Source: an uncultured Clostridia bacterium (GTDB lineage: Bacteria; Bacillota; Clostridia; TANB77; CAG-508). Taken from it: DNA of 64,000 nt. The position numbers and the translations under genes are program-made. Below, one piece after another: positions 4,551 through 63,663 of the stretch. The stretch lies in assembly GCA_934120675.1 (NCBI GenBank), contig CAKOUU010000008.1:1420-65419 (forward strand). Direction: 5' to 3'. The notes under the pieces were generated by a model that searched no databases, was not told the origin of the DNA, and worked only from the letters and a program-made list of their open reading frames with translations. Every line of letters begins with the position of its first letter. Positions within the stretch are counted from its first letter, which is position 1.

Positions 4551-4746
4551 TTCGGGATTTGGGGACGGGTCTTTAATCCCGAAATATTTTTCTTTCTTAT
4601 TCCTCAATTGTTATATATTAATATTTAAAGAAAAAGTCCCAAAGGAAGACCCAAAGTAGCATTTTTTCTGAAAATATTAATATATAACAATTGTAAAAAA
4701 AATTTATAAAAATTTTGGGATTAATGACCCGTCCCCAAATCCCGAA
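4551..4746. repeat. Composite nested palindrome: outer GGGGACGGGTC-loop hairpin pair, inner 22-bp perfect inverted repeat, 45-nt centre
   Basis: The outer unit 4551-4583 TTCGGGATTTGGGGACGGGTCTTTAATCCCGAA matches the reverse complement of 4715-4746. The inner repeat 4605-4626 CAATTGTTATATATTAATATTT matches the reverse complement of 4672-4693 at 22/22. It fills the sufB|sufD spacer. Confidence 0.85.
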
Positions 4747-4749
4747 TTT

Positions 4750-6150
4750 TTATCCTATTGCTCCTTCTAATTCTAAGTTAATAAGATTATTCATTTCAAC
4801 TGCATATTCTACTGGTAATTCCTTTGCTATTGGATGTGCAAAACCTCTTACTATCATAGCCTTTGCGTCTTCCTCTGATAGTCCTCTGCTCATTAAATAG
4901 AATATTGTTTTATCACTTATTTTCCCTATTTTAGCTTCGTGTGAAAATTCAACTTCATCTGTTCTTATGTCATTTGTTGGTATTGTGTCTGAAACTGATA
5001 TCTCGTCTAACATAAGTGATTCACATGATACTGATGATTTTGAATTTTTTGCATTTTCATTTATTCTTACCAAACTTCTATATGTGCATTTTCCACCGTT
5101 TTTTGATATTGATTTTGCATTTACAACACTTGATGTATTTGGTGCATTATGAATTACTTTAAATCCGTTGTCTAGGTTTTGTCCTCCACCCGCAAAAGAT
5201 ATTCCTGTAAATTCTGTTTTTGCACCTTCTCCATTTAGTATGCTCATTGGATATAGCATTGATATTTTTGACCCAAATGAACCTGATACCCAGTCCATTT
5301 TTGCATTTTTTCCTACTATTGCTTTTTTTGTATTTAAGTTAAGCATATTTTTTGACCAGTTTTCTATTGTTGAATATCTTAAATAAGCATTGTCTGCTAC
5401 ATATAGTTCAACACATCCTGCATGTAGATTTACTTTATTGTATTTTGGTGCTGAACATCCTTCTATAAAGTGTAAACTTGCTCCTTCTTCTACAATTATT
5501 AATGTGTGTTCAAATTGTCCAGCCTCTGGTGAATTTAGTCTAAAGTATGATTGCAATGGAACATCTACTTTTACTCCTTTTGGTACATATACAAACGAAC
5601 CGCCTGACCATACTGCTCCATGTAATGCAACAAATTTGTGGTCATATACTGGTACACATTTCATAAAGTGTGATTTTACTAATTCTGGATATTCTCTTAC
5701 TGCTGTTTCCATATCTGTATAAATCACACCTTGTTTTATTAATTCTTCTTTCATACTATGGTAAACAACTTCTGAATCATATTGTGCTCCAACACCTGCA
5801 AGTGATGTCTTTTCCGCTTCTGGTATTCCCAATTTGTCAAATGTATCTTTAATATCTTCTGGAACATCATCCCATGAACTATTTAATTTTGACTTTGGTC
5901 TTACATATGTTGCGATTTCGTCCATATTTAATTCTGATAAATCTGGTCCCCATGTTGGCATTTCTAAGTTGTTATATACCTCTAATGCTTTTAGTCTAAA
6001 CTCTCTCATCCAGTCTGGGTCGTTTTTTTGTTTTGATATTTCTTCTATTATTTCCGGTGTTAAACCTTTTTTTATTTTAAAGTCGTATTCATCTTTGTTT
6101 TTTATATCATAGATATTTCTATTTATTTCTTCTAAATTTGTTTTTGACAT
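4750..6150 (-). CDS. sufB: Fe-S cluster assembly protein SufB
   Basis: 466 aa with HTLIIVEEGASLHFIEGCSAP and GKISDKTIFYLMSRGLSEEDAKAMIVRGF. Confidence 0.92.
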   Translation of the reverse strand: MSKTNLEEINRNIYDIKNKDEYDFKIKKGLTPEIIEEISKQKNDPDWMREFRLKALEVYNNLEMPTWGPDLSELNMDEIATYVRPKSKLNSSWDDVPEDIKDTFDKLGIPEAEKTSLAGVGAQYDSEVVYHSMKEELIKQGVIYTDMETAVREYPELVKSHFMKCVPVYDHKFVALHGAVWSGGSFVYVPKGVKVDVPLQSYFRLNSPEAGQFEHTLIIVEEGASLHFIEGCSAPKYNKVNLHAGCVELYVADNAYLRYSTIENWSKNMLNLNTKKAIVGKNAKMDWVSGSFGSKISMLYPMSILNGEGAKTEFTGISFAGGGQNLDNGFKVIHNAPNTSSVVNAKSISKNGGKCTYRSLVRINENAKNSKSSVSCESLMLDEISVSDTIPTNDIRTDEVEFSHEAKIGKISDKTIFYLMSRGLSEEDAKAMIVRGFAHPIAKELPVEYAVEMNNLINLELEGAIG

Positions 6151-6233
6151 TTTATATAGTCCTTTCTAAAACTTGCATTTTATGTAAAATTGTGGTATAA
6201 TATTTTTATAAAAAACTTAAGGAGGTCACTTAT

Positions 6234-6452
6234 ATGAAAGAAAGTTATTTAACTCGGGGCATTTTTTATGGTATCGTAGGACTTATACTTACTATTTTTT
6301 CACTTTGTGTTTATTTTCTAGAGATACCTTTTATGTCCGAATCAATTAAGTTTCCTTGTACAGGATGCTTAGTTGCTATTGCAATATCTAATATTGTCAA
6401 GTGTATCATTTCTTTAGTATTTCACTATGACGCAACCTATTATCCATTCTAG
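6234..6452 (+). CDS. Small two-TM membrane protein, opposite strand, between sufC and sufB
   Basis: 72 aa. SD AAGGAGG lies 7 nt upstream. Promoter TTGCAT-17-TATAAT with a TG extension at about 6174-6202. A hairpin at 6460-6489 follows. Confidence 0.5.
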   Translation: MKESYLTRGIFYGIVGLILTIFSLCVYFLEIPFMSESIKFPCTGCLVAIAISNIVKCIISLVFHYDATYYPF

Positions 6453-6488
6453 GTGGCCGGGGTAATAATCATTTTTTTGATTATTACC

Positions 6489-7223
6489 CTATTTATATTG
6501 TGCATACCCATTTTCTTCAATTTCAGAAGCCAATTCTTGTCCTCCTGTTTTAACAATTTTTCCATTAACCAAAACATGAACATAATCAACTTTCAAGCTA
6601 TGCAAAATTTTTGTATTATGAGTAATAATTAAAACTGCATTATTCTCATTTTTAAACATCTCAATACCTTTTGAAACAGTCTTAATTGCATCAACATCAA
6701 GTCCTGAATCTGTTTCATCAAGAATTGCAAGTTTTGGATTTAAAACAAGCATTTGTAAAATCTCATTTTTCTTTTTCTCTCCACCTGAAAATCCAACATT
6801 TAAACTTCTTTCCATGTTTTTAGGATTCATATTTAATTCTTCCATATATTTTTTCAACTCATCTTTAAATTGAAATATTTTAACAGGTTGTCCTGTAATT
6901 TTATTTTTAGCATATTTTAAGAAATTTGTAACTGAAACTCCTGGTATTTCTTCTGGTAATTGGAATGACATAAATATTCCTTTTCTTGCAATTTCATCAG
7001 TTCTTGATTTTGTAATATCTTCACCATCAAATGTTATTGTTCCATTTGTTTTTGTGTATTCTGGGTTATTTAATATTGCATTTGCTGTTGTTGTTTTTCC
7101 TGAACCATTTGGTCCCATTATTACATGAATTTCTCCTCTTTTAATATTTAAATCTATTCCTTTTAATATTTCTTTTTCTCCTGCGTTTACATGTAAATCT
7201 TTTATTTCTAATAAATTACTCAT
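6489..7223 (-). CDS. sufC: Fe-S assembly ATPase SufC
   Basis: 244 aa with Walker A GPNGSGKTT, signature FSGGEKKKNEILQM and Walker B ILDETDSGLD. Confidence 0.92.
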   Translation of the reverse strand: MSNLLEIKDLHVNAGEKEILKGIDLNIKRGEIHVIMGPNGSGKTTTANAILNNPEYTKTNGTITFDGEDITKSRTDEIARKGIFMSFQLPEEIPGVSVTNFLKYAKNKITGQPVKIFQFKDELKKYMEELNMNPKNMERSLNVGFSGGEKKKNEILQMLVLNPKLAILDETDSGLDVDAIKTVSKGIEMFKNENNAVLIITHNTKILHSLKVDYVHVLVNGKIVKTGGQELASEIEENGYAQYK

Positions 7224-7227
7224 TGTT

Positions 7228-7704
7228 TTAAATCCTTTCTTTTTTTATTGTTCTCCTTGCACAACATCTACATTTTTCTTTATTGATATCATAATCACAG
7301 TCTAAATTTGTTAGTCCAAGTTCTTTATGCACATATTTTGCCAATTTGTTTATTGTCTTATCCGATATTGCTAATTTTATTTTTTCCGCTTCGCTTTTTG
7401 CTTCTTCTTCGTCTAAATTAAGTACATCTTTTAAAAACACATACATTATGTCATATGCTTCTAGAATTTTTTTTGCTAGGTCTTCACCTTTTTCTGTTAG
7501 TTCTATGGTTCCATATGATTCATAATTTACCAGTCCACTATCTTTTAAATTGTAAATTGCTTTGTTTACACTTGGTTTTGTACAGTTCATTTTTTTTGCA
7601 ATGTCTGTTACTCTTATGTTTCCATTTTGCTGTTTTAATATGTACATTGTTTTCAAGTATTCTTCTGATGATTTTGATATCATTTTTATCCTCTCTTTTT
7701 TCAT
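7228..7704 (-). CDS. DtxR/MntR-family transcriptional regulator with a C-terminal four-Cys tail
   Basis: SSEEYLKTMYIL...VTDIAKKMNCTKPSVNKAIYNLKDSGLV gives the DtxR-type wHTH and dimerisation helix. The tail is LDCDYDINKEKCRCCARR. The stop is 4 nt from the sufC start. Confidence 0.75.
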   Translation of the reverse strand: MKKERIKMISKSSEEYLKTMYILKQQNGNIRVTDIAKKMNCTKPSVNKAIYNLKDSGLVNYESYGTIELTEKGEDLAKKILEAYDIMYVFLKDVLNLDEEEAKSEAEKIKLAISDKTINKLAKYVHKELGLTNLDCDYDINKEKCRCCARRTIKKERI

Positions 7705-7762
7705 TTTTTTATTAATATTTTATTGTTTACATTATTTGAAAATTTATCTTTATATTTTAAAT

Positions 7763-7809
7763 ATGTTAACTACGGTTAACATTATACTCTCATATGTAAT
7801 GTTTGTCAA
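7763..7809 (-). promoter_or_regulatory. Promoter with an overlapping palindromic operator upstream of the DtxR-like gene and suf operon
   Basis: Minus strand: TTGACA(7804-7809)-17-TATAAT(7781-7786). This is immediately followed by the palindrome ATGTTAAC-TACG-GTTAACAT (7763-7782). Confidence 0.55.
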
Positions 7810-7886
7810 GGCTAACAGTCAAAAAAATGACACATTTTGCTAATTTTTAGCATGTGTCATTTTTATTTATATATTTCAATAAAAAA

Positions 7887-8504
7887 CTATAAGATATTAT
7901 ATTCCTTTAATGTTTGTACAACACTTTCAAAATTATCTGGTATTACTTTTTTTCCTTGTATTCCTAATTCATTTGCTGTTTTTATATTTTTAATATTATC
8001 ATCTATAAATAAACATTCTCGTGGTATTAATTTATATCTTTCTAATAAAGTATTATAAATGCCTACATATGGTTTTACTTGGTGTTCAATATATGAAAAT
8101 ACATAACCATCTACAAGATTAAATAGTTTGTTATCTTTTATGTGATTATAAGTATGTGAATTTATATTTGATAATAAATATATTTTATAATCTTTTTCTT
8201 TTAATTCTTTTATTATATCTATTACATTATCATTTATAAAACTATAATCATTATATCTATACCAAAATTTTTCAATTAATTCATCATTTATATGATTAGT
8301 TCTATCTTCAACAATTTCAATTGCTTGCTCTCTTGAAATAAAACCTGTATCTATTAATGAATATTGTAACCACTCTGGTGAATTAATTATATTGTTTATT
8401 ATAAATTGTTTTTCACTTTCTTTTTTTGTAAAATTAGGTATTACTTCTTTTATATCAAATTGTAAAATTACATTTCCTATATCAAATATAATATTTTTAA
8501 TCAT
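7887..8504 (-). CDS. HAD-superfamily hydrolase (subfamily IA-like)
   Basis: 205 aa with N-terminal IIFDIGNVIL, LLSNINS, and the C-terminal motif CLFIDDNIKNIKTANELG. Confidence 0.75.
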   Translation of the reverse strand: MIKNIIFDIGNVILQFDIKEVIPNFTKKESEKQFIINNIINSPEWLQYSLIDTGFISREQAIEIVEDRTNHINDELIEKFWYRYNDYSFINDNVIDIIKELKEKDYKIYLLSNINSHTYNHIKDNKLFNLVDGYVFSYIEHQVKPYVGIYNTLLERYKLIPRECLFIDDNIKNIKTANELGIQGKKVIPDNFESVVQTLKEYNIL

Positions 8505-8570
8505 TTTTTTCTCCTAAACTTTGTTCTATAATATAATTTTTTTTTATAATAATATTATATCTAAAATAAT

Positions 8571-11500
8571 CTATTTATTATTTAATTTATATGGAGGTGA
8601 TAATTTACTAATTCCAAAACATCCACCTGCAAATAGTAATTCACCTGTTTTAGGATTAACTTCTAGAGAATTTGTTTCAAAACCACCTTGTCTTCCTTGT
8701 TTTACAATAGAATTTGTTGTATTACTTGTTATAACTTGGAAAGATTTCCCTCCATCAACTGAACGATATAATGCACAATCATTTAAAAATGTATTTCCAG
8801 CTCCACCACAGTAAATTATATTAGGATCTATTGGGTCTACTGCAACCTTAGAAATGCAATACCCACCTTTTAAGTTTACAGGAGCTCTCTTATATTCGTC
8901 AACATATCTATTTAATACACATTCTACACTACCATCTTTTGTAGATGTTTTGTATAAATATCCACCTTCACATGCTGCATATGCCACTTCGTTTTTCCAG
9001 TCATATGCTACATCCATTACATGTGCTGATGCGTATTTAGGATTTGGTATAAATTCTGTATTATTTACTTTTTGCCAAGTCTTTCCATCATCATAAGATG
9101 TTACAATATATTTTCCAGTTTCGTCCATTCCATATAATTCTTTTTGACCTTTTGGGTTATGTGTATAAACATTTATACATCCATCCATTTTTGCCCAAGT
9201 ATGTCCACCGTCTTCACTTCTTAAGTCACATGCAAATAATACTTTTGGATTTGTTGGTGACTGGTATGATGATTCTATTCCTGCATTTATGTTTTCTTTT
9301 GTAAAATACATTCCTGTATCTACAATTGTTTTTCCACCATCAAATGTGATTTTCAATTTTCTTGGATTATGCCATGCATCTGAAACTCCAACAAAATATG
9401 TATTTTCATCTACTGCATACCCACCATAGCAGAAGCCACCCCATCTGTATCCTGACATACTAATATATTTCCAAGTTTTTCCGCCATCTGTTGTAACACA
9501 TCCATCATAATCTTGTGAGCCAAAATATATAATGTCTGGGTTATATACATTGTAGTGAACATTTCCTCCACTTAAAATTCCTGTAATTCCGTTGCTGTTC
9601 CATTTAAAAGTTTTTCCACTATCAGTACTTGAACTTGCATAATCTCCTTGTGTATGTATCCAAACTTTGTTTTCATCAACAGTACTCCACATAGGAATGC
9701 TCATTCTGTTATTATATGGCATAAAACTTAATTCATCTGATAATGTTGAAATTTTCCATGTCTTTCCGCCATCTATACTGTAATATGGATAATTTTGATA
9801 TGTTCCTTGTCTATCTATGACTATCATCTTATTTGAATTTAATGGACTTACTTTTATGTTCATTGGTTGTGTTGTTGGATATGAAGTTGATTCTATTTTA
9901 CTAAAAGTTTTTCTATCTTTTGAAATATGTACTCCATTATTATTGCAGTAATAAACATTTATTTTATTATTTTTTTGCGCTGTTAAATCTAGTCCTGTAA
10001 TAGTATCATTCACTATTTTTTCAAAGTTTTCACCTTTATCAGAGCTGTAATATATTCCATCTTTTCTTGAAACATATACATCCCCTGTATATGGATTTAT
10101 TTTTATTGTTCCATCACTTAAATCATTATTTACAAGATTCCAAGTATAGCCACCATCTGTTGTTTTATATAAACCCTTTTCGCTTTCTTCTAGATAATTG
10201 TCTTCTGTTTCATATGCTGTTGACCAATATGCAACCATACATCTATTTTTTTCTTGATTATATGATGATTCATCATATGCTATTGCTTCCCTTACATCTC
10301 TATGCCCTTTTACTAACATCATTTTAGTAAACTTCCATGATTTTCCCCCGTCTTCTGAAATATAAAGTCCATTTGTATTAAATGGTGAGCTATTTATTCC
10401 AACAGCTACAACATATGATGGATTTTTAGGATCTATTGAAAACGCTCCTACTCCTCTTGACTGTAATCCTGCATTTGATTGCTCCCAGTTTTGGCCTCCA
10501 TCTTCTGAACGATAAACTCCACCTACATCTGTTCCATATAATAACAATTTTCCGTCTTTGCTTATAGCCATTCCAATTGGCCATTGACATCCTTCTCCAC
10601 CTGTTGTGACTCCTTGTTTTTGCAACAATTCCTTTGAAACCATTGGCACTGCTGACCATGATGTTATATTTGTTACATTGTTTTTATCATAAGGACATTC
10701 TTTGTGTTGTTGTATCAATAATGATAAATCTATTATGCTTAATTTACTATCACTGTTCATGTCTGCTTGTTCTAATGATGTTACATTTTTTGATTTTATT
10801 AAATATTCTTGCATTATTTCTATATCTTCATCATCTATAACAGAACTTTGGTTTACATCTCCTAAAAATATTTCTGATGCTGCAAATACTGTACTTTGAC
10901 TTATTAGTATTCCACAAATTATAAGCATCATCATTGTTTTTCCACATTTTTTACTCTTATGGTAAAATACTATTGATAAAATTGCAAAAACAAATATTGA
11001 AATTAACAAAGCCCATCCTTTTCCTGTTTTAGGTAGAATATTTGGTAATATTTCTTTATGCTTTTTTTCTAGTTCCAAATCATTGTTATTTGTATTGTTT
11101 TTATTTTCTGAATTTGATGGTGTTTCAATTTTATTTTCTTCATCATTTTTTTCTGCTGACTTTTCTTTTATTAATATTTTCTGTGTTAATTTTTCATTTT
11201 TAAATTCTATATTTCCATCTGATGCTACTATTCCATCTATAGTTATTTCAGTATTTTCAATGTTTGCATTGTCTTTTGCTTTTAATTTTATTTTCAAAAT
11301 TTCTTTGTTTGTTTTGTCTTGCTTGTTAATTACATTGAATTCCTTATTATCTTTATTGTATTTTATGCTTTCCCAACCTTCTTTAGTTTCAAAATTACTT
11401 TCATCTATTTTTTCCCAAATATTTTCGTCATAATTTATTTTTGCTTGGAATGCATTGATTTGTTCCTCACTATTTATTTTTAATGTTACTGATGTTTCTT

Positions 11501-11660: not shown

Positions 11661-11716
11661 ATTATATATTTATATCTTATCATAATAAAATATAAATTAC
11701 TATAATATAACAAAAA

Positions 11717-12055
11717 AAATAACACATTTATTAATTCTGTGTTTACAATTCACAGCTTTTAAAAAATTTTGTGTGCAAGTTGCCCCCCCTTAAGGGTTAT
11801 ATATATTTGATATTGTATTCGTTTGATTGAAGTGAAAAATAGAAAATCTTAAATAAATAACTGAGGAATGCTCACGGAAGAAATGTATATATGTATATTT
11901 CTGTCCTAAGTGAGAGAGGCTCAGTTTGATATTTTAGATTTTCTTTTTAAACGTAATGAACAGGATACAATATCAAATATATATAACCCTTAAGGGGGGG
12001 CAACTTGCACACAAAATTTTTTAAAAGCTGTGAATTGTAACATTATGTGTTATTT
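11717..12055. repeat. 339-bp nested palindrome with 76-bp perfect arms (MITE-like or cruciform element)
   Basis: 11743-11818 matches the reverse complement of 11965-12040 at 76/76 (TTACAATTCACAGCTTTTAAAAAATTTTGTGTGCAAGTTGCCCCCCCTTAAGGG...). The outer AAATAACACAT (11717-11727) pairs with 12045-12055. The 146-nt centre is itself an imperfect palindrome. Confidence 0.9.
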
Positions 12056-12060
12056 ATTCT

Positions 12061-12837: not shown

Positions 12838-12934
12838 ATTTTTCCTCCTTGATTTTTTATTTTTTTCGTGCTATTATACTTGTTAGAATTAATTCATTTC
12901 ATATAATTAAATTTTGAAAGGTAGGTGTATCTTG

Positions 12935-13111: not shown

Positions 13112-13117
13112 TTCAGA

Positions 13118-17297: not shown

Positions 17298-17329
17298 TGA
17301 GACACTTGGGACAGTCCAAAATTGTCTCA
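17298..17329. repeat. Hairpin TGAGACA...TGTCTCA containing GGGACAGTCCAAAATTGTCTCA (member of a two-copy motif)
   Basis: It lies between the ABC ATPase stop and the permease SD. A 22-nt core recurs at 62817-62838 with 20/22 identity. Confidence 0.6.
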
Positions 17330-19394: not shown

Positions 19395-19398
19395 CATT

Positions 19399-22407: not shown

Positions 22408-22663
22408 TTTTATTTTCCTTTCAAATTTTTAGTTTTTATTAAATTCAATATTATTTATATCATAAATTTAGATTTTTTCATAGCTTTTTATAAAATTAAG
22501 AAGCTATGTTTTCATAGCTCCTCTAATGTTAGTTATTTGGCAGGTGTGCCAAATCCTGCATCTCTTTTGACCACTATGGTGTGTGGATGGCACTATTGTC
22601 CACTTCAAATAACTCTTTATATTGTACTTATATTATATAACTTTTATTCATTTTTGTCTAGGC

Positions 22664-28719: not shown

Positions 28720-28793
<74 letters not shown>

Positions 28794-28837
28794 AACTATG
28801 AAATTGTTATCAGTTTTCCACATATTATAAATAAATG

Positions 28838-28911
<74 letters not shown>

Positions 28912-29020
28912 ATTGTTCCTGACAGTTATAGATTATAAATGATTTTCTTATAACTGTCAAGACTTTTTTGAAAATATTTTAAATTTTTTTATATTTTTTA
29001 TCTTCAGTTTTTATTCTCTT

Positions 29021-30822
<1,802 letters not shown>

Positions 30823-39160: not shown

Positions 39161-39227
39161 CAACCAATAAAGAACGTCCCCGTTGGTTTTTTCATTTTCG
39201 ACCAATTAAAGAACGTCCCCGCTGGTT
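39161..39227. repeat. Two tandem, same-orientation hairpin units with an AAGAACGTCCCC loop
   Basis: CAACCAATAAAGAACGTCCCCGTTGGTT (39161-39188) and CGACCAATTAAAGAACGTCCCCGCTGGTT (39199-39227), in the mtaB|mreB spacer. Confidence 0.85.
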
Positions 39228-40243: not shown

Positions 40244-40397
40244 GTAACTTCTTCCCTTCTTTTTTATTTTTGTTTCGCTTTTGTTACATTTTCGTTACGA
40301 TTATATTACAAATTGTTAATTTTATCAATACATTTCATTGAATTTTTTAATTTTTTATATTATAATAATTACAGTTTAATAATTGCTTTATAATTTT

Positions 40398-40571
40398 GTG
40401 TGAAGATATGTATTTTTTATAATTTTTTCGGTTTCAATATACAATAAAAGAATTTCTAAATAAATTAATGGCACTCTTCCACATTGTGAACTCTTTCCAT
40501 TAATTTATTTAAGAACTTCTAATATTGTTTCATTCACACTCAAAAATTCTAAAAAATACATATCTTCACAC
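40398..40571. repeat. 174-bp imperfect nested palindrome in the mreB / tsaE divergent region
   Basis: 40398-40427 matches the reverse complement of 40542-40571 at 29/30 (GTGTGAAGATATGTATTTTTTATAATTTTT). The inner AAATAAATTAATGG / CCATTAATTTATTT matches 14/14. The centre contains CACATTGTG. Confidence 0.85.
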
Positions 40572-40624
40572 ACTATTACTATATTGTGTTTATAAAATTT
40601 TTATAAAATTTTAGGAGAATTTAA

Positions 40625-42310: not shown

Positions 42311-42388
42311 AAAAATGTCCTTTTGGGGACGGTTCTGTTTGGGACATCGGTTCCATTTGAGACATCGTCTTTAAAAAGGACATTTTTT
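42311..42388. repeat. Long hairpin between convergent rimI and thrS with three GGGAC/GAGAC-type units in its interior
   Basis: The stem AAAAATGTCCTTTT / AAAAGGACATTTTT encloses GGGGACGGTTCTGTTTGGGACATCGGTTCCATTTGAGACATCGTC. Confidence 0.75.
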
Positions 42389-48486: not shown

Positions 48487-48917
48487 TTTTTCTTTTCCTT
48501 TCGCATATTTATTTTATACTTATACTATATCATAAGTTTTTAAGTTATAAAAGAGGTTTTTTATAATTTTCCGAATTTATAAAAACAAAAACTACCAATA
48601 TATTTCGTTATTGAAAAAGAGCAGGATATTTTCCTGCCCCTTTTTAATTATGCAACTAAACAAGCATCAATAAATTTCTGTGTAATGCTATACTTGACTT
48701 CTTCATCACACTTTAGAAATCCTTTTTCTGCCATTTCTTGCATCAATTCGATTTCCCGTGAACTTACACTGTTGTCGCACAAATCTTTGTATTCATCACT
48801 GGAAAAAGTCTGTTAATCATTGAAATTAAATGGTTAGTAGACTTTTATTTGCTTAACTTGACAAGTGTTGAATTTTATGTTAATGTATATGTTAACAAAC
48901 TTAAAGGAGGAAACATT

Positions 48918-49382
48918 ATGAATAAAAAAGCAAAATACAAGGAATTAGCAAAGAAGGCATTTCGGCAAGCTTTAAAAGAAGAAGAAGGTTTAATTTCTCT
49001 ACAAATTGATCCTTTGGTTCACCTCGACGAAGTTGATTTCAATAACAAGGAGGAATTTAAGGCATTTATGAATCGTTCTTGCCCATTCTTTATGGATATT
49101 GAAGATAAAGAAGGATGGCAAATTTGTATTGACACTTTACAAAAATTAGTTATACAAAAATATAACAATTTGGAAAACGAGGAATTAAAACCAACTCAAG
49201 CATTACAACTTATATTATTAATGGAAACATTTTCTAGTATGACATGGATACAAGATAATCTGAAAGAAAGATTGACAGAATTGCCAATGTCAACATATTT
49301 AGTATCTAAACTTTATATTATGCCAAATATAGTTCCAGAAGATTTTTTTGAGTTTTTCAAAGAATTAAATAAAGTATTTTAA
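48918..49382 (+). CDS. Hypothetical helical protein, tandem paralogue 1
   Basis: MNKKAKYKELAKKAFRQALKEEEG... SD AAAGGAGG. Shares YNNLENE.LKPTQ...ILLMETF and the ...ELNKVF end with 49494-49973. Terminator at 49391-49426. Confidence 0.6.
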   Translation: MNKKAKYKELAKKAFRQALKEEEGLISLQIDPLVHLDEVDFNNKEEFKAFMNRSCPFFMDIEDKEGWQICIDTLQKLVIQKYNNLENEELKPTQALQLILLMETFSSMTWIQDNLKERLTELPMSTYLVSKLYIMPNIVPEDFFEFFKELNKVF

Positions 49383-49493
49383 CTTTTTAGACACAAGAAC
49401 TTAAATTAAGTTTTTGTGTTTTTTTCTGTTAGCTTGAAAAATATCACATTTTATGTTAATATATGTGTTAACAAACTTAAAGGAGGAAACATT

Positions 49494-49973
49494 ATGGATA
49501 AAAAAGTAAAATATAAAAAATTAGCAGAGAGAGCATTTCGGCAAGCTTTAAAAGATGAAGAATATTCACATATATGCATAGATTCTCAAGTAGTATCTTT
49601 AATGCATAATAGCGACATCGAAAGGTATTATAATACCAAGAAAAAATTCAAAAAATTTATAAATGAATATTCTCCTTTTTTCATAGAAATTGAGTCTAAG
49701 AAAGACTTGCCAATTCTTTTAGAAAATTTGAAACGTTTAGTTATGCAAAAATATAACAACTTAGAAAATGAAAAATTAAAGCCAACTCAAGTTGCATTCA
49801 TTATATTATTAATGGAAACATTTGGGGACTTAACAATGGTACAAAATAACTTAAAGCAACGAGTTAACGATTTTCCTATTGCAGCATATGTAGTGGCACA
49901 ATTTTATATTATACCTGATATAGAACCTGAAGTCTTTGTAGAATTTTGCAAAAAACTAAATAAGGTATTTTAA
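49494..49973 (+). CDS. Hypothetical helical protein, tandem paralogue 2
   Basis: MDKKVKYKKLAERAFRQALKDEEY... Its leader (GTTAACAAACTTAAAGGAGGAAACATTATG) is identical to that of paralogue 1. Terminator at 49983-50018. Confidence 0.6.
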   Translation: MDKKVKYKKLAERAFRQALKDEEYSHICIDSQVVSLMHNSDIERYYNTKKKFKKFINEYSPFFIEIESKKDLPILLENLKRLVMQKYNNLENEKLKPTQVAFIILLMETFGDLTMVQNNLKQRVNDFPIAAYVVAQFYIIPDIEPEVFVEFCKKLNKVF

Positions 49974-50037
49974 CTTTTTTAGGCACAAGAACTTAGAATA
50001 TAGTTTTTGTGCTTTTTTCTTTTATAATATTGAACAA

Positions 50038-50209
50038 AACAGGTTACAGTTCAGTAAGAAATTTTGTAAATTTGCTTTAAATGTTGATATACTAATATTT
50101 TGCAGTAAAAGACCTATAGGTAGACCCCGGCTATGTTTTTTACAAAAAATATTAATATATCAACATTTATAATAATTAATTCCTATACTTTACTGAACTG
50201 TTACATGTT
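50038..50209. repeat. 172-bp nested palindrome related to the core of the 4551-4746 element
   Basis: The outer AACAGGTTACAGTTCAGTAA matches the reverse complement of 50190-50209 at 18/20. The inner 50079-50101 matches the reverse complement of 50146-50168 at 22/23. The centre contains ACCTATAGGT and AGACCCC. Confidence 0.85.
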
Positions 50210-53310: not shown

Positions 53311-53315
53311 ATACA

Positions 53316-53353: not shown

Positions 53354-53388
53354 GCATTCACAATATTTAACTATAAAATTTTTATACA

Positions 53389-54549: not shown

Positions 54550-54566
54550 TTTTTCCTCCATAAAAT

Positions 54567-54652
54567 TTCGGGATTGGGGGACGGGTCTTTCATCCCGATT
54601 TTTTTATCATAAAAATTTTTCGGGATGAAAGACCCGTCCCCCAATCCCGAAA
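54567..54652. repeat. Inverted pair of GGGGACGGGTC-loop hairpins filling the dnaK|dnaJ spacer
   Basis: 54567-54598 TTCGGGATTGGGGGACGGGTCTTTCATCCCGA matches the reverse complement of 54621-54652 at 32/32. The spacer is a 20-nt AT palindrome. Confidence 0.9.
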
Positions 54653-54663
54653 TTTTTCAAATT

Positions 54664-56553
<1,890 letters not shown>

Positions 56554-56574
56554 TTATATTTTTAAAATTAATAA

Positions 56575-57081
56575 CTAATTTGCGACTACCACCATAGAAT
56601 GTCTAATAACCCTATGACCTATTTTGTAGCCCTTTCTATACTCTTGAACAATTTCTTTTTCTCCCTTAGAATCATCCTGAACACTGCTAACAGCTTCATG
56701 AAGTTCTGGATCAAAAATTTCTCCAAGAGCTTTGATTTCTTCTACACCTTTTGATTTAAGTACATCTTGAAATTGTTTTAAAACAAGTTCAACACCTTTT
56801 TTATAATTCTCATCTTGAGTCTCAACTTTTGCTGCATTTTCTAGGTTATCTAATATTGGAAGCATAACTTCCACAACATCACCTAAAATTGAATTATACA
56901 TGCCTTCTCTTTCTTTTTGACTTCTTTTTTTATGATTTTCAAATTCTGCTAAAATTCTTTTATATCTGTCTGTCAAATCATCTAATTCTTGTTGTTTTTT
57001 TTGTAATTCACTTTTTTCTTCATTAATTTTTTTAATTTCTTCTGTTACTTCTTGTTCAACATTTTCATTTTCTTTTCCCAT
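56575..57081 (-). CDS. grpE: Nucleotide exchange factor GrpE
   Basis: RILAEFENHKKRSQKE ... FDPELHEAV ... GYKIGHRVIRHSMVVV. The start is taken at MGKENEN after AAGAAAGAGG. Confidence 0.93.
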   Translation of the reverse strand: MGKENENVEQEVTEEIKKINEEKSELQKKQQELDDLTDRYKRILAEFENHKKRSQKEREGMYNSILGDVVEVMLPILDNLENAAKVETQDENYKKGVELVLKQFQDVLKSKGVEEIKALGEIFDPELHEAVSSVQDDSKGEKEIVQEYRKGYKIGHRVIRHSMVVVAN

Positions 57082-57179
57082 TTTATCGCCTCTTTCTTTA
57101 TTATTACACATTTAATTCAAAATCATTTCAAATAATTTTAAAATTTGCCAATGCAAAAATTATAATTATTTTTCAATCT

Positions 57180-58190: not shown

Positions 58191-58203
58191 TTTCTCACCT
58201 CTT

Positions 58204-58230
58204 TTAGCACTCTTTTTGTTTGTTTGCTAA
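58204..58230. promoter_or_regulatory. CIRCE, hrcA-proximal
   Basis: TTAGCACTC-TTTTTGTTT-GTTTGCTAA. Confidence 0.75.
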
Positions 58231-58254
58231 TCTTGTTATATATTATATCCTTTT

Positions 58255-58281
58255 TTAGCACTTGTCAATACCTTTTGCTAA
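58255..58281. promoter_or_regulatory. CIRCE-like element overlapping the hrcA -35
   Basis: TTAGCACTT-GTCAATACC-TTTTGCTAA. The gene strand carries TTGACA and a downstream TATAAT. Confidence 0.6.
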
Positions 58282-58489
58282 ATTTTTTTGTGAATTTTTT
58301 GTGAACTCTTTTTAACAACAAAAAAAAGTTATAGATTTCAAATTTCTATAACTTTTTTCTGTTATTATATTTCAAACGATTTTACATTTCTTCTATAATT
58401 TTTTTATTTCTTCTTCATTTAAACCTGTTGCTTTTGAAATTTGTTCAATTTCCATTCCCATTTCTAATAATTTTTTTGCAGTTTTTATT

Positions 58490-58541
58490 ATACCGTTCTT
58501 TTATACCGTTCTTTTATACCGTTTTTCTATACCGCTCTTCA
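58490..58541. repeat. 13-nt tandem repeat x4 (ATACCGTTCTTTT-like) at the 3' end of the Rpn-family gene
   Basis: The units are 58490-58502, 58503-58515, 58516-58528 and 58529-58541. On the gene strand each reads c-GGTATAnAAgAA (Gly-Ile-Lys/Glu-Glu plus one extra nt). Confidence 0.85.
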
Positions 58542-59227
58542 ATTCCAGCTTTTTTACCTTTATTGTATCCAGCACTTTCTATTGATTTTTGATCTAATAT
58601 GTATTTTTCTCTTAACTCTGCTAGATATCTTTCATGTTCGTCATTACTTATTTTTTCTAATTCCTTTTTGGCTTTTTTTAATTCTGCATTTTCATCCATT
58701 TTTACCACCTCTGGATTTTCTATAAATTTTAACCACAAGTTCATTTTTTTTCTTTTATTTTCTTTGTATTTTATGAACTTCGGCATCTCGATTATATATA
58801 ATTCCATAACATCTGTCAAGATTATTTGGTGGTATTCTTCTTCTCTAATTTGCCATTTTGTTTGATATTTTGGTATTTCTTTTAATGATTCTAACTCATA
58901 ATCTGATATTAATATTACTATTGTTTTCTCTAACAATTCATAATCATTTCCTGATTTAATACTTGTACTATACATTTTACTCCAATAAAACATTATTCTC
59001 TTTTCTATATTACTATGATCTACTACTTGCATCTCTATATTGCAATTTATATTATTATCTATTTTAGCCCTTATGTCTAAAATCCCAACTTTGTCATCTA
59101 ATAAGTCTTTTTCTAATATTGTATTGTTGTCTAATTCTACATTTGTTATTTTCTTTTCCACTATTGAACTTATCAAAGAAGCTGTTATGTCTTCATTTCC
59201 TATATGTCCAAATATTCTTTTGAACAC
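58514..59227 (-). CDS. Rpn-family PD-(D/E)XK nuclease (putative transposase / recombination-promoting nuclease family)
   Basis: FKRIFG...ILDIRAKIDNNINCNIEMQ...IMFYWSKMY follows the family pattern. The frame is open upstream to ~59260 (IIAKLLNPKNDYV) with no ATG. The conserved C-terminal tail is out of frame downstream. Confidence 0.7.
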   Translation of the reverse strand: MFKRIFGHIGNEDITASLISSIVEKKITNVELDNNTILEKDLLDDKVGILDIRAKIDNNINCNIEMQVVDHSNIEKRIMFYWSKMYSTSIKSGNDYELLEKTIVILISDYELESLKEIPKYQTKWQIREEEYHQIILTDVMELYIIEMPKFIKYKENKRKKMNLWLKFIENPEVVKMDENAELKKAKKELEKISNDEHERYLAELREKYILDQKSIESAGYNKGKKAGIEERYRKTV

Positions 59228-59591
59228 ATAATCATTTTTTGGATTTAATAATTTTGCTATAATTTATCACTTCTTTCTTTTTTTGATTTTTGTTTTTGAA
59301 TTTTTGGCTGATTTGCCTTAAATTTGAATTAAAATATATCGCTTGAAATATAATGTAATTATATTAACATAAAAAGTTTATGTATGCAATACTTTTTTAA
59401 AATTATGTACTAATTTTTTGAACTAGGTAATTTTTTGTGAACAATAATATATAGAACAAAAGCAGACATTAATAACGTTAGCATTTAATAAAAAAACGGG
59501 CATTAATAACATTAGCTTATTTAAATAGAAAAATCTAAAACCTACAGTATCCACCGTAAAATTTTAGATTTTTTAATCTATTTTTATTCAA

Positions 59592-59963
59592 TTATAAATA
59601 TCTATCATTCTTAGAATTATAATTATCACCATATCTTTTTTTCAAATCTTCCACTAATTTAGAATCAGATTTATTACCAACACTTATAGGTTTAACATCA
59701 CAATGAAGCTGGCTCACAAATTTCTGTGCTAATTCATTTCGTCTTTGAGGATTCATTCCCTTTCTTCTTGCAATTCTCAAATAGCCATCATACTCTTCAA
59801 ATTTTCCAGCAGAAATTCCATCTTCTATAAAATCAATTGGAATTCCTGTATATGCACTTACTTGCACTTTTGTACTTTCAGGTTTTAAAGCAACATAATT
59901 TTTTACTCTTTCATAATATGATTTTTCAACATCCTTTTCCATCTCTTTTTCCTTCCTTTGCAA
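59592..59963 (-). CDS. Hypothetical protein
   Basis: 123 aa. A terminator hairpin at about 59540-59586 lies downstream. No confident motif. Confidence 0.5.
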   Translation of the reverse strand: MQRKEKEMEKDVEKSYYERVKNYVALKPESTKVQVSAYTGIPIDFIEDGISAGKFEEYDGYLRIARRKGMNPQRRNELAQKFVSQLHCDVKPISVGNKSDSKLVEDLKKRYGDNYNSKNDRYL

Positions 59964-60088
59964 CTTAAAAATTCATTTGTTTACTTATTTATATACTAAT
60001 ATCTTTTATTTTGTCAACACTTTTTATAATTTTTTATATCATTTATTTTCTTCTTGTTACAATTCACAGCCTTAGAAAATTACAACTT

Positions 60089-60934
60089 CTACTTAATTAT
60101 TATTGTTGAAATCAAAATTCCAACAGTCTGAATTGCAAATAAATTCAATATATTAGATGTAAGCAAATTATTAGTAGCCTCAACAACTCCAAGCATATCA
60201 TCTTCAACTTTTTTATAATGTCTTTGAGATTCAAAAAAAGTAATTAATTCTGGTAAACTCGTAACAAAACCTAATAAAATACCAACAATAACCTCAGAAA
60301 CTCCAAATATATTACACAAATTTTCAAGTGTATCTCCTAATAACTCTCCTATAAAAAATAATAAAATTCCTGTTATAATTAAAATTGATACATATAACAA
60401 CACTTTTTTAGGCTTCTTCTTTTCTTCTTTTCTTTCCGCTTCAATTTCTTCCTCAAGTTCCTCATCTTCGTTTTTTAAATATAATTTATGAACATGATTA
60501 TTTAAAACTCTAAATAAACTATACAAAATAATAAATAATGGCACTACTGCTAATTTTAATTCTATATCAAGTTTTAGAAAAACAATTGGTATTGCTATTG
60601 TAAAAAATACTAGTACTAAATCTGTTATTATGGCTCTATTTCGCAATTTTGATGTGTTTTTGTTTAACAAAATTGCACCTAAATATTGAATTAAGTTAAT
60701 TACATTCGAACTTAAAATGTTATAAACACTTGCAGCTGTTAAACCTCTTAGGCTTGATGTTATTATTGTTAATAGTTCTGGTACTGATGTTGCATATCCC
60801 GCTATATCTCCAACAGTTTTTGCTTTTAAGTTTAAAGCCTCCGCTAATTTTCTTAATGTCGTTACTAGTATATATTTTGAAATCAGTACTATTAATCCTG
60901 AATATATGATAAATTTTATTATTTCTAAAAGCAT
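60089..60934 (-). CDS. CaCA-family (Na+/Ca2+ exchanger-like) membrane protein
   Basis: Two alpha-repeat signatures, GYATSVPELLTIITS...SSNVINL and FVTSLPELITFFES...TSNILNL, separated by an acidic/basic loop. Confidence 0.7.
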   Translation of the reverse strand: MLLEIIKFIIYSGLIVLISKYILVTTLRKLAEALNLKAKTVGDIAGYATSVPELLTIITSSLRGLTAASVYNILSSNVINLIQYLGAILLNKNTSKLRNRAIITDLVLVFFTIAIPIVFLKLDIELKLAVVPLFIILYSLFRVLNNHVHKLYLKNEDEELEEEIEAERKEEKKKPKKVLLYVSILIITGILLFFIGELLGDTLENLCNIFGVSEVIVGILLGFVTSLPELITFFESQRHYKKVEDDMLGVVEATNNLLTSNILNLFAIQTVGILISTIIIK

Positions 60935-61128
60935 TTATTATCAGCTCCTTTTTGTTTTCTTTTTATATTTTTATCTTTTTCAATTTTTTTATTCTTTTTT
61001 CATCATAGATTTAACGTTACAATTCACAGTTTAAGAAATTTTTTATTTTGTAGATATTTACAAATCCATTTAAAAATGGTATAATTTGGAAGTGACTATT
61101 TATGATTTTTTGAAAGGAGTATCACAAT

Positions 61129-61356
61129 ATGAGAAAAGACAGCAAAGATTTAACTGAAATTTTTTCGGTTGGATCAAATGATTCCAATCCCTCTATTAAG
61201 GAAATACGGAGGAAAAAAACAGACAAAAACTCAAGCAGTGACATTGCTACTTATGAAGTAGTTGCTCACATTGAAAAAAATCAAGAAATAAAGATTGAGG
61301 ATAAAAGTTTATCCCCTGCAGAAATTGATTTTATACAACATCAATTTGGCAGATAA
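61129..61356 (+). CDS. Hypothetical protein
   Basis: 75 aa. Promoter TTTACA-17-TATAAT, SD AAAGGAG. Terminator at 61371-61417. Confidence 0.5.
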   Translation: MRKDSKDLTEIFSVGSNDSNPSIKEIRRKKTDKNSSSDIATYEVVAHIEKNQEIKIEDKSLSPAEIDFIQHQFGR

Positions 61357-61370
61357 GTTTTATTTTTCGA

Positions 61371-61417
61371 AAGTGCATATGTAAAATTTCAAAAAAACAC
61401 ATATGCACTTTTTTTAT
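61371..61417 (+). terminator. Intrinsic terminator
   Basis: AAGTGCATATGT...ACATATGCACTT followed by T7. Confidence 0.75.
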
Positions 61418-61516
61418 GTCAATTTTCCTTGATATTTAACCAAAAATATTATATAATGCCATAGAAAGAATCATAAAAGAAAAAAAATTATATAAATTAA
61501 ATTTTAGGAGGCAAAA

Positions 61517-62803
61517 ATGATAGATATCAAATTTTTAAGAGAAAATCCCGATGTTGTAAAACAAAACATCAAAAACAAATTTCAAGACGAAAAACTAGTA
61601 TTAGTTGATGAAGTTATTGATTTAGACATAAAAAACAGAGAAGCAAAATTAAATGGAGACAATCTAAGAGCAGAAAGAAAATCTTTAAGTGCAGAAATTG
61701 GTGGACTTATGAAACAAGGCAAAAAAGAAGAAGCAGAAAGCATAAAAGTAAAAGTTCAAGAAATAAATGCACAACTTGAAGAGAATGAAAAATTAGAAGC
61801 AAAATATGCTGAAGAAATAAAATCAAGAATGATGAAAATACCAAATATTATGGACCCATCTGTTCCAATTGGTAAAGACGACAGCGAAAATGTAGAAGTT
61901 CAAAGATTTGGTGAACCAGTTGTTCCAGATTATGAAATTCCATATCATGCAGACATTATTGCAAGATTTAATGGAATGGACAAAGAATCTGCAGGACGTA
62001 CAAGTGGCGTTGGTTTCTACTACCTAATTGGTGATGTTGCAAGGCTTCACGAAGCAATGCTTGCATATGCAAGAGATTACATGATTAACAACGGTTTCAC
62101 ATATGCTATACCACCATTTATGATTCGTAGTGATGTTGTAACTGGTGTTATGAGTTTTGAAGAAATGTATGATATGATGTACAAAATTGAAGGTGAAGAT
62201 TTATACCTAATCGGTACTTCTGAACACTCAATGATTGGTAGATTTAAAGACCAATTAATCAAAAAAGATGAACTTCCAATTAGCATGACATCATACTCTC
62301 CATGTTTCAGAAAAGAAATTGGTTCACATGGTCTAGAAGAAAGAGGTTTATACCGTGTTCATCAATTTGAAAAACAAGAAATGATAGTTTTATGCGAACC
62401 AGAAGATTCTATGAACTGGTACAATAAAATGTGGAAATTAAGTGTTGATTTATTTAGAAGTTTCAATGTTCCAGTAAGACAACTTGACTGTTGTTCTGGA
62501 GATTTAGCAGACTTAAAAGTTAAATCTTGCGATATTGAAGCATGGAGTCCTAGACAAAAGAAATACTTTGAAGTTTGTAGTTGCTCTAACTTAGGAGATG
62601 CTCAAGCAAGACGTTTAGGAATTCGTGTTAAGAGTGAAAAAGGAAACTATTTCTTACATACATTAAATAATACAGTTGTTGCTACGCCAAGAGGACTAAT
62701 TGCAGTATTAGAAAATAACTACAATGAAGATGGAAGTGTTACTGTTCCAGAAGTTTTAAGACCTTACATGGGTGGAACTGAAAAAATTCTTCCAAAAAAT
62801 TAA
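61517..62803 (+). CDS. serS: Seryl-tRNA synthetase
   Basis: 428 aa with MIDIKFLRENPD, a coiled-coil arm, class II motifs (FRKEIGSHG, LNNTVVATPR), and promoter TTGATA-17-TATAAT. Confidence 0.96.
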   Translation: MIDIKFLRENPDVVKQNIKNKFQDEKLVLVDEVIDLDIKNREAKLNGDNLRAERKSLSAEIGGLMKQGKKEEAESIKVKVQEINAQLEENEKLEAKYAEEIKSRMMKIPNIMDPSVPIGKDDSENVEVQRFGEPVVPDYEIPYHADIIARFNGMDKESAGRTSGVGFYYLIGDVARLHEAMLAYARDYMINNGFTYAIPPFMIRSDVVTGVMSFEEMYDMMYKIEGEDLYLIGTSEHSMIGRFKDQLIKKDELPISMTSYSPCFRKEIGSHGLEERGLYRVHQFEKQEMIVLCEPEDSMNWYNKMWKLSVDLFRSFNVPVRQLDCCSGDLADLKVKSCDIEAWSPRQKKYFEVCSCSNLGDAQARRLGIRVKSEKGNYFLHTLNNTVVATPRGLIAVLENNYNEDGSVTVPEVLRPYMGGTEKILPKN

Positions 62804-62812
62804 AATGAAACA

Positions 62813-62839
62813 AGTGGGACAGTGCAAAAATGTCTCACT
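62813..62839 (+). repeat. Hairpin AGTGGGACA-N9-TGTCTCACT after serS (second copy of the GGGACAGTSCAAAAWTGTCTCA motif)
   Basis: 9-bp stem with one G.T pair, so it folds cleanly only on the + strand. No adjacent T-run. Confidence 0.6.
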
Positions 62840-62952
62840 TTAATGTCAAAAAACGTCGAAAACAATATTTTTTATATTTGAGGGAGTAAAAGTTTGAAAA
62901 ATATTTGTGAGATAAATATTTTTAATCAAATTTTGTGCCTTGAAAGAAAGGA

Positions 62953-63546
62953 ATGTCAGTAAATATGATAGTAAATAATCCAAAATTTGAAGTATCAGCA
63001 GTAAGACCTGCTCAATATCCAAAAAATAATTTACCAGAAATTGTTTTAGTTGGTAAATCCAATGTTGGAAAATCAAGTTTTATAAACACCATGATAAACA
63101 GAAAAAAGCTTGCTAGAACAAGCAGTGAACCTGGAAAAACAAGACAAATTAATTTTTATAATATTGACGAAAAATTTTATTTTGTCGATTTACCTGGATA
63201 TGGATACAGTAAAATGTCTAAAAAAGAACAAGAACAAGTTGGTAAATTTATTGAGCAATATCTATTTAATAGAGAACAAATTTCTTTGATTATCTTTTTA
63301 GTAGATATCCGTCATTCACCTACTGAAAATGATAAACTTATGTACGATTACGTTATTCGTTCCGGTTTACCTTGTATGATTTTGGCAAATAAAGCTGATA
63401 AAATTGCTGTTACTAAAGTTTCAGATGTAGCTAGCAAATTACAAAAAACTTTAAATCCAATTGGTGATATTCCTACTTTTCCATTTTCTTCTGAAAGAAG
63501 AATTTATATGGATGATGTATGGAATGAAATTGAAAAATATATTTAA
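62953..63546 (+). CDS. engB: Ribosome-biogenesis GTPase EngB/YsxC
   Basis: GKSNVGKSSFIN, DLPGYGY, NKADK. Confidence 0.92.
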   Translation: MSVNMIVNNPKFEVSAVRPAQYPKNNLPEIVLVGKSNVGKSSFINTMINRKKLARTSSEPGKTRQINFYNIDEKFYFVDLPGYGYSKMSKKEQEQVGKFIEQYLFNREQISLIIFLVDIRHSPTENDKLMYDYVIRSGLPCMILANKADKIAVTKVSDVASKLQKTLNPIGDIPTFPFSSERRIYMDDVWNEIEKYI

Positions 63547-63663
63547 AAAAACGGGATTAGGGGACGGGTCTTCAATCCCGAATTTTTTTGTATATTGATA
63601 CATTTAGAAATATTTAATAAAAAAATTCGGGATTGAAGACCCGTCCCCTAATCCCGTTTTTTT
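63545..63663. repeat. Perfect 45-bp inverted pair of GGGGACGGGTC-loop hairpins between convergent genes
   Basis: 63545-63589 AAAAAAACGGGATTAGGGGACGGGTCTTCAATCCCGAATTTTTTT matches the reverse complement of 63619-63663 at 45/45. Confidence 0.9.

Follow-up and report, generated by a model that had tools for sequence, protein, structure and literature searches.

Hairpin units between core genes

The 64,000-nt stretch analyzed here (the window; G+C 28%) belongs to contig CAKOUU010000008.1 of an uncultured Clostridia bacterium, and its DNA is contained at 100% identity in L006, a 110-kb contig from a Hadza gut metagenome (fetched loci are cited by L numbers). Short hairpins that carry the hexamer GGGACG at their apex lie in several of its spacers, both within operons and between convergent genes; these hairpins, their relatives in other genomes, and the Y1 HUH transposase genes that they frame are the subject of this study. 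The flanking genes are, by NCBIfam models, those named in an initial annotation made from the sequence alone: SufB|SufD, GroES|GroEL, DnaK|DnaJ, MreB|MtaB, and YsxC/EngB converging on a 95-aa open reading frame (ORF). Sporulation genes are present in loci neighbouring the window, indicating that its host is a Clostridium-like gut organism, so far uncultured.

All 11 units listed in the initial annotation (11/11) were recovered where it had placed them. The apex pattern GGGGACGNNYCTT, with at most one mismatch allowed, has 10 matches in the window against 0.09 expected (10 or more in 0/100 shuffles), and the stem pattern GGGATN{12,20}ATCCC has eight matches against 0.10 expected. GGGACG lies at a hairpin apex in 12 of its 14 occurrences in the window, the twelfth such hairpin (42315-42347) being one that was missing from the earlier list. 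The strand that reads GGGAC(G) is referred to below as the G strand, and units are oriented by it.

The sufB|sufD spacer holds a doublet of class-1 units, in which the left arm (4545..4589, + strand) has the stem CGGGATT/AATCCCG and the apex TGGGGACGGGTCTTT, and the right arm (4708..4752, - strand) is slightly decayed (TGGGATT stem, GGTCAT). Class-1 doublets also occur between dnaK and dnaJ (left arm 54561..54605, +; right arm 54612..54656, -) and between the convergent ysxC/engB gene and 95-aa ORF (left arm 63544..63589, +; right arm 63619..63664, -; 29-nt spacer). The groES|groEL spacer is occupied by a doublet of class-2 units (left arm 30717..30751, +, with the stem GAA(T/C)CAAT/ATTGGTTC and the apex GGGGACGTTCTTAA; right arm 30789..30822, -) and by a single unit with a GGGATT-type stem and the apex AAGGGACGTTCCTTC (30678..30710, +), which adjoins the groEL ribosome-binding site; this last unit, initially described as a hybrid, is assigned here to a third class. 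In the mreB|mtaB spacer, two class-2 units of the same orientation (39161..39188 and 39199..39227, both -) stand in tandem, with the G strand as the mRNA strand. An atypical unit, with the stem ATGTCC/GGACAT and the apex TTTTGGGGACGGTTCTGTTTG, lies between convergent genes (42315..42347, +). Two hairpins with a GGGACAG apex and a TGAGACA/TGTCTCA-type stem are tentative class-5 relatives: one at 17298..17329 (+; stem TGAGACA/TGTCTCA, apex TTGGGACAGTCC), and one at 62806..62837 (+; stem TGAAACA/TGTCTCA, apex GGGACAGTGC), directly 3' of the serS stop codon.

The arms of a doublet had been described as identical within each locus. This applies to two of the four doublets, which are complementary at 46/46 positions (63544-63589 / 63619-63664) and 37/37 positions (54562-54598 / 54620-54656); for the other two, complementarity is 95% in groES|groEL (30717-30754 / 30785-30822) and 92% in sufB|sufD (4551-4589 / 4708-4746).

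Nested in the spacer of the sufB|sufD doublet is a palindromic insertion of ~117 nt (4590..4707, no strand assigned) that lies outside the hairpin family, with arms CAATTGTTATATATTAATATTT / AAATATTAATATATAACAATTG and core GTCCCAAAGGAAGACCC. It is not found in the orthologous sufB|sufD doublets of L053, L060, and L083, and a copy with 71% similarity is present near 50.1 kb (50085-50170; match 50099-50167), such that the element may represent a second small repeat family. The adjacent sufD gene occupies two ORFs (4295-4528 and 3406-4248; break at 4248-4300), and differs from the intact orthologs of L060 and L083 by one base in an A run, reflecting either a real frameshift or an assembly error.

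Unit anatomy

Profiled by position, 166 unique class-1 units give the consensus AAAAWTT-CGGGATT-N-GGGGACGGGTCTT-Y-AATCCCG-AAAWTTTT, and the conserved box, GGGGACG, is inside the hairpin. Across 197 unique units, at least six stem classes share a common apex: CGGGATT (class 1), GAACCAAT (class 2), GGGAATT, TTGTCAA, TGAGACA, and CGCCCAA. These classes confirm the proposal of a constant apex on a replaceable stem, and extend it. Of 281 GGGACG hexamers in all fetched DNA, 241 cap a stem of 6 bp or longer, compared with 0-7% for ten control hexamers. Stems were called per unit with these hexamer controls, in place of a covariance model; the all-class MAFFT alignment is ungapped and the pairing registers differ (i+j = 44 vs. 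45), so that a single-structure covariation count would mislead.

The apex is not the open loop initially described, but forms a small internal stem, GGG(A)/(T)CYY, in which G-C pairs and G.T or G.U pairs surround a tip of 3-5 nt. The 3' side of the apex differs by class (TCTT, TCCT, or CCC), whereas GGGAC is constant. The wobble pairs make the two strands unequal in hairpin stability: in RNA folds the G strand is more stable than its complement by ~4-5 kcal/mol (-24.1 vs. -18.6; -12.8 vs. -8.5), whereas in DNA folds the difference is small. A whole doublet folds as a single hairpin (-55 kcal/mol, z = -15.8). The view of the units as a structure-plus-sequence recognition element holds across the family, in the sense of a kept box on an exchangeable stem.

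Abundance and genomic location

Searched with one genome per species, the exact class-1 pattern occurs in at least 99 separate 8-kb stretches. Among the matches listed, seven related assemblies account for all 99 stretches: Clostridium sp. 28_17 (30), an uncultured Clostridium metagenome-assembled genome (MAG; 24), three Hadza MAGs (21, 10, and 1), HGM13651 (12), and Clostridium sp. CAG:389 (1). The host range of the family is a clade of uncultured human-gut Clostridia of ~27-30% GC, including Clostridium sp. 28_17, Clostridium sp. CAG:389, and the Hadza MAGs. A literature search found no description of such repeats in Clostridia.

The fetched units form 162 non-redundant clusters, of which 143 lie between genes, a further 15 touch a gene end, and four are within ORFs, in DNA that is ~80% coding. 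Unit density per kb is 1.4 in tandem spacers, 2.0 in convergent spacers, and 0.38 in divergent spacers; the same scarcity in divergent spacers has been published for repetitive extragenic palindromic (REP) sequences (PMC3733652). The positions of the window units, initially thought unusual, are likewise the usual homes of REPs, namely intercistronic and convergent spacers (PMC3733652). The 162 clusters comprise 89 single units, 64 doublets, eight triplets, and one quadruplet. The G strands converge (+/-) in 59 doublets and diverge (-/+) in four, with one doublet in tandem (++). The gap between +/- neighbours has a median of 16.5 nt, and the commonest doublet is ~70 nt long with an A/T spacer of 11-14 nt. 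No identical whole doublets were found at separate loci of one genome; identical doublets are orthologous sites in different assemblies. CRISPR-like repeats were considered as a candidate and rejected, as no arrays were found.

Turnover between strains

Comparison of orthologous spacers reveals that presence or absence of units at groES|groEL differs between strains. The spacer is 21 nt long and empty in L002-L005 (four contigs with identical GroEL protein), is filled with a class-1 doublet in L001, L034, and L056, and with a class-1 triplet in L042; in the window, it holds the class-3 unit and class-2 doublet described above. Over 21.6 kb, the L002-L005 lineage lacks GGGACG units, and in its mreB|mtaB spacer the unit stems are kept with the apex decayed to AGGAACG. 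In sister genomes, one site carries a doublet in one genome and a single unit in the other, with breakpoints within the repeated stems. An apparent empty site in L094 is the remnant of a microhomology deletion, in which the last ~15 nt of the unit are left. The polymorphic sites showed no terminal inverted repeats accompanied by target-site duplications.

The 29-nt spacer of the engB doublet (63590-63618) is exactly inverted in L014 and L032, with the arms unmoved. This shows recombination between the inverted arms, and such arm exchange offers a possible reason for the identity of doublet arms. At dnaK|dnaJ in L010, both arms have changed in step. As a separate observation, the dnaK|dnaJ spacer of L107 (L107:2883-3028) has an unrelated 137-nt sequence in place of the class-1 doublet, and this replacement has its own terminal inverted repeat (TAAATCGAATCAAAAAC ... 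GTTTTTCATTTGATTTA); the spacer seems to be a hotspot of small palindromic insertions.

The location of units after gene 3' ends and inside operons raises the alternative that the hairpins are primarily RNA elements (mRNA stabilizers, processing sites, or leaky terminators) that set groES:groEL and dnaK:dnaJ ratios and have spread by selection for that function. Where single units lie between co-directional genes, the G strand is the sense strand in 46 cases vs. 15 (p = 9e-5), that is, the strand that forms the more stable RNA hairpin through G.U pairs is favoured in mRNA, and A/T runs stand beside the stems. E. coli REPs are known to stabilize upstream mRNA. However, doublets (64 of the 162 clusters) place both strands in one transcript, and targeting of the lagging-strand template would predict the sense bias just as well: if genes are mostly co-oriented with replication, such targeting and selection for the more stable RNA fit the 46:15 bias equally well. 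Furthermore, the groES|groEL spacer is empty or filled by another class in strains with identical GroEL, and thus the hairpin is dispensable. A simple terminator scan called none at dnaK|dnaJ or groES|groEL, no Rfam family matches the hairpins, and units occur in both orientations inside operons; the hairpins thus do not qualify as intrinsic terminators (a G+C-rich stem and a loop of 3-8 nt, with a U tract directly after the stem). An RNA role would also leave the framing of Y1 genes in eight lineages (see below) unexplained. A primary function in RNA is therefore considered unlikely, although an RNA-level effect may be a secondary role. The related suggestion of a CsrA-type protein binding an exposed GGA is without support, because doublets put both strands into mRNA.

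Y1 HUH transposase genes framed by the hairpins

As initially reported, the window encodes no Y1 transposase that can be found by tblastn. A search for genes of REP-associated tyrosine transposases (RAYTs) or of IS200/IS605 TnpA found RAYT-like genes framed by class-1 and class-2 hairpins in sister genomes (DNA 92-98% identical), as well as framed homologs in six relatives. The sister genomes encode two paralogous Y1 HUH proteins of ~250 aa with a mutual identity of 41-43%. RAYT-1 (252 aa) is encoded between a ferredoxin gene and a gene for a pyruvate:ferredoxin oxidoreductase (PFOR) subunit in L064, L036, and L090, and is degraded in L087; it is framed by class-1 units with the G strand inward. 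RAYT-2 (257 aa; L072:1945-2718) is encoded in L072, an end of which is syntenic with the right end of the window; a pair of class-2 units precedes the gene (G strand forward), and a single class-2 unit in reverse orientation follows it, overlapping its stop codon. The framing orientation, G strand inward, is the same as the orientation within doublets.

Both proteins pass the Pfam Y1_Tnp model (52.6 bits, cutoff 23), and among NCBIfam models they score highest with that of REP-associated tyrosine transposases (64.9 bits, cutoff 80), well above IS200 (27.5 bits). The HUH motif N59-H60-x-H62 and the motif Y-x3-N-P, as Y120-I-H-x-N124-P125, are invariant in 20 homologs; Y-x3-N-P is a RAYT class signature (PMC6006769). 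A search of PDB sequences with the single RAYT-1 sequence gave no match; with a family profile, E. coli TnpA-REP (4ER8) is the top match (E = 7e-5). For an AlphaFold model (predicted local distance difference test score, pLDDT, 91.3), Foldseek likewise gives 4er8_A as the best match (E = 1.3e-6; template modelling (TM) score by target 0.73), followed by the IS608 and ISDra2 transposases. In the model, the last ~110 residues (about 142-251) form helices, and weak Pfam hits to the helix-turn-helix (HTH) families HTH_24, HTH_17, HTH_23, and HTH_28 occur in 2-6 of 19 homologs; residues 137-246 of RAYT-2 weakly match the sigma-70 ECF family (TIGR02937). A database search returned 235 homologs, all but two of them without a name and one labelled "hypothetical protein." Many of the homologs are on contigs of ~1 kb, probably because the flanking repeats break assemblies.

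Six further homologs (L113, L114, and L116-L119; identity 38-55%) are all framed by inverted hairpins with the G strand inward. The apex is GGGACG in five of the six, and the stems are lineage-specific (GGGATTT, GGTTCAAC, GGAAAAG, and TGAAACA); in L116, L118, and L119 the framing units are found again elsewhere within the locus. The class to which the 30678..30710 unit of the window belongs also frames the RAYT orthologs of L114 and L116. The gene order PSP1-ferredoxin-[RAYT]-PFOR is kept in three of the six (identities 55%, 47%, and 43%), and genes of the RAYT-2 type adjoin RNase J in L072 and L117. Because synteny is kept down to 43% protein identity, the comparison of loci argues for vertical inheritance of the transposase gene at fixed sites. 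As a side observation, a class-3 unit often has a second hairpin-like box after it, either AGGGACAC or GGGGACAC (L036:7243-7393, L090:631-780, L114:2836, and L117:5871); a class-3 unit together with this second box, which exactly matches the consensus GGGGWSAS of TIRYT elements (see below), may form a composite end.

It could be argued that the hairpins are fragments or miniature derivatives of ordinary IS200/IS605 elements, or miniature inverted-repeat transposable elements (MITEs) of the DDE type, that depend on a multi-copy, horizontally moving transposase. Y1 enzymes of the IS200/IS605 family use subterminal hairpins, and the TnpA proteins of IS608 and ISDra2 are the next-best structural matches; in addition, IS200-type tnpA genes exist in relatives, one at L003:14195-14641 and a fragment at L034:2011-2265. 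However, the L003 lineage is the one without GGGACG units in 21.6 kb, for which reason a link between the hairpins and the IS200-type gene of L003 was rejected, and the only GGGACG units found in L034 are ~2 kb from the fragment. The hairpin-framed gene scores 27.5 bits on the NCBIfam IS200 model (cutoff 55), and its fixed synteny, as well as the absence of terminal inverted repeats with target-site duplications at polymorphic sites, does not fit such elements. We regard this explanation as very improbable.

Equally remote, in our assessment, is that the hairpins are binding sites of a host DNA- or RNA-binding protein (a nucleoid protein, CsrA-like protein, gyrase, or IHF-type protein) kept by selection, with the Y1 gene incidental. 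A short conserved G-rich box on a variable stem would suit a binding site, and classical REPs bind gyrase, Pol I, and IHF (PMC2817692). On the other hand, the position of the units obeys no rule with respect to promoters or ribosome-binding sites, divergent (promoter) spacers are poor in units, and their presence differs between close strains; the recurrence of Y1 framing in eight lineages, each time with stems particular to the lineage, can hardly be regarded as incidental.

Interpretation and proposed mechanism

The hairpins are most probably REP-type palindromic units, with the inverted doublets corresponding to REPINs (REP doublets forming hairpins), and constitute a non-autonomous family with cognate RAYT-like Y1 genes. 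This REPIN/RAYT interpretation, first raised in the initial annotation, is supported by the dominance of inverted doublets (59:4:1), by the dispersed and extragenic distribution of the units, by polymorphism between strains, and by Y1 genes framed by units. The framing is recurrent and class-specific, each stem class having a cognate Y1 gene of this RAYT-like type.

Several observations weigh against it. Mobilization by the RAYT-like protein is predicted from association. The Y1 gene is known from the sister genomes rather than from this exact genome, and in L106-L110 an unrelated 74-aa gene stands at the RAYT-2 position, although L106 has class-2 units. The best NCBIfam model for the proteins, REP_Tyr_transpos (NF047646), is matched at 64.9 bits, below its cutoff of 80. 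No conserved tetranucleotide, GTAG included, occurs outside the class-1 stem in the 166 units, where there are A/T runs only. The GGGAC box is not obligatory, as the L113 ortholog keeps a GGGATT stem with the apex GGGGCCACCACTCC. An insertion target could not be defined, the only clean empty site, groES|groEL of L002-L005, being too diverged for boundaries to be recognized. Finally, the loci were chosen with the class-1 pattern, and the counts given above are consequently biased towards class 1.

Under the REPIN/RAYT interpretation, and drawing on established knowledge of IS200/IS605 transposases and E. coli TnpA-REP, the enzyme would bind the G strand of a unit as a single-stranded DNA hairpin, recognizing the stem by its shape and the G-rich GGGAC(G) near the apex by its sequence; the apex box would thereby take over the job of the classical REP GTAG foot. 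The enzyme would then cut and rejoin single-stranded DNA, probably at the replication fork, such that units or doublets are copied or kept in intergenic DNA. Doublet arms could stay identical by recombining or by mutual repair, and a deletion running from one repeated stem to another could reduce a doublet to a single unit. Any influence on mRNA, for example through a stable hairpin at the 3' end or partial termination in operons, would probably be a side effect, on which selection may act as a filter.

Among long-lived replicators nested in bacterial genomes, REPIN-RAYT systems have been studied best, and they are known almost only from Proteobacteria. The clade described here would add an independent example from Firmicutes, in variant form. 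Its natural enzyme-hairpin pairs, at least seven in number, have one box and differing stems, and provide a series for testing shape recognition against sequence recognition by Y1 enzymes. The repeats insert in core operons (groESL and dnaKJ), where they may change cistron ratios; they probably also break short-read assemblies. Their strain-level presence or absence in abundant human-gut organisms means that they could serve as markers.

Other features of the window

Several other features were also recorded. A match to the Rfam skipping-rope RNA (RF02924) lies at 22532-22613 (- strand; 68.2 bits, gathering score 36.7). Two long intergenic inverted repeats, at 11743-11844 / 11939-12040 (102-nt arms, 89%) and 40391-40460 / 40509-40578 (70-nt arms, 77%), are unrelated to the GGGACG family. 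A direct repeat of ~280 nt (700-979 vs. 1605-1886) has an identity of 76-94% and a spacing of ~905 nt, and two adjacent paralogous ORFs (48843-49388 and 49419-49979; 177 and 185 aa) have a DNA identity of 70-85%. Downstream of groEL are two identical tRNA genes (28720-28794 and 28838-28912), 118 nt apart; in L003-L005, the region of these genes contains variable islands with a serine recombinase, TnpV, and an IS200-type tnpA.

Comparison with known systems

The system resembles the REP/REPIN-RAYT systems of Gammaproteobacteria, such as E. coli TnpA-REP with its REPs and bacterial interspersed mosaic elements (BIMEs) and the REPINs of P. fluorescens (PMC3116915, PMC2817692, PMC5581495), in having short, high-copy extragenic palindromes; inverted doublets that form one long hairpin, with single units as decay products; and a resident Y1 HUH gene that is framed by its own repeat class, with several enzyme-repeat pairs per clade. 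In both, the gene stays at a fixed site, here with apparently vertical inheritance, and the best structural match of the enzyme is 4ER8. REPs are expected to have a conserved GTAG at the palindrome's 5' foot (Bertels & Rainey 2011; Nunvar 2010); unlike those systems, there is no GTAG (or CGTC) at the hairpin foot here, and the box GGGAC(G) is instead on the 5' side of the apex. Additionally, the enzyme is ~100 aa longer, with a putative C-terminal HTH (weak hits), and the host is a low-GC Firmicute, in the very AT-rich DNA of which the stems are only 6-9 bp.

With IS200/IS605 elements (IS608 and ISDra2), the system shares the Y1 HUH fold, recognition of imperfect single-stranded DNA hairpins, and strand asymmetry, and the orientation bias of single units is compatible with lagging-strand-template targeting. 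In contrast to those elements, the gene does not appear to exist in many copies or to move together with its ends, is below the IS200 cutoff, and has no tnpB partner, and the repeats have spread without the gene.

Going by published descriptions, the closest known kind is TIRYT, or subclass 2.1. TIRYT/TIRtron elements are flanked by repeats that share GGGGWSAS (Di Nocera et al. 2013, PMC3733652), and TIRYT corresponds to TnpA-REP subclass 2.1 according to Quentin et al. (2018, PMC6006769) and to RAYT group 1 according to Bertels et al. (2017, PMC5581495). RAYT group 1 has been reported in Clostridia, without REP populations (PMC5581495), and no REP-like hairpins were found adjoining subclass 2.1 genes (Quentin et al., PMC6006769); in published surveys, abundant REPs were found with only two RAYT groups (PMC5581495, PMC6006769). 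Like TIRYT, the enzymes described here have a RAYT-like core; they may also share its C-terminal HTH (weak HTH_23 and HTH_28 hits), and the repeats have a G-rich box, which, compared with the published consensus only, agrees with GGGGWSAS at 7/8 positions for GGGGACGG, 6/8 for GGGGACGT, and 8/8 for GGGGACAC (beside some class-3 units). The published TIRYT cases, however, have long terminal inverted repeats at low or moderate copy number, whereas the flanks here are compact self-complementary hairpins that form abundant, dispersed, REPIN-like populations with swapped stems. We tentatively propose, at somewhat less than even confidence, that a clade of HTH-bearing RAYT-like enzymes in low-GC gut Clostridia keeps REPINs by means of an invariant GGGAC(G) 5' of the apex, recognized as sequence, and a stem recognized as shape only, which would make this the first clear REPIN-RAYT system in Firmicutes and the first for group 1 / subclass 2.1. 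If so, enzymes that are paralogous or diverging would gain private repeat populations simply by stem replacement (CGGGATT, GAACCAAT, GGAAAAG, TGAAACA, and others).

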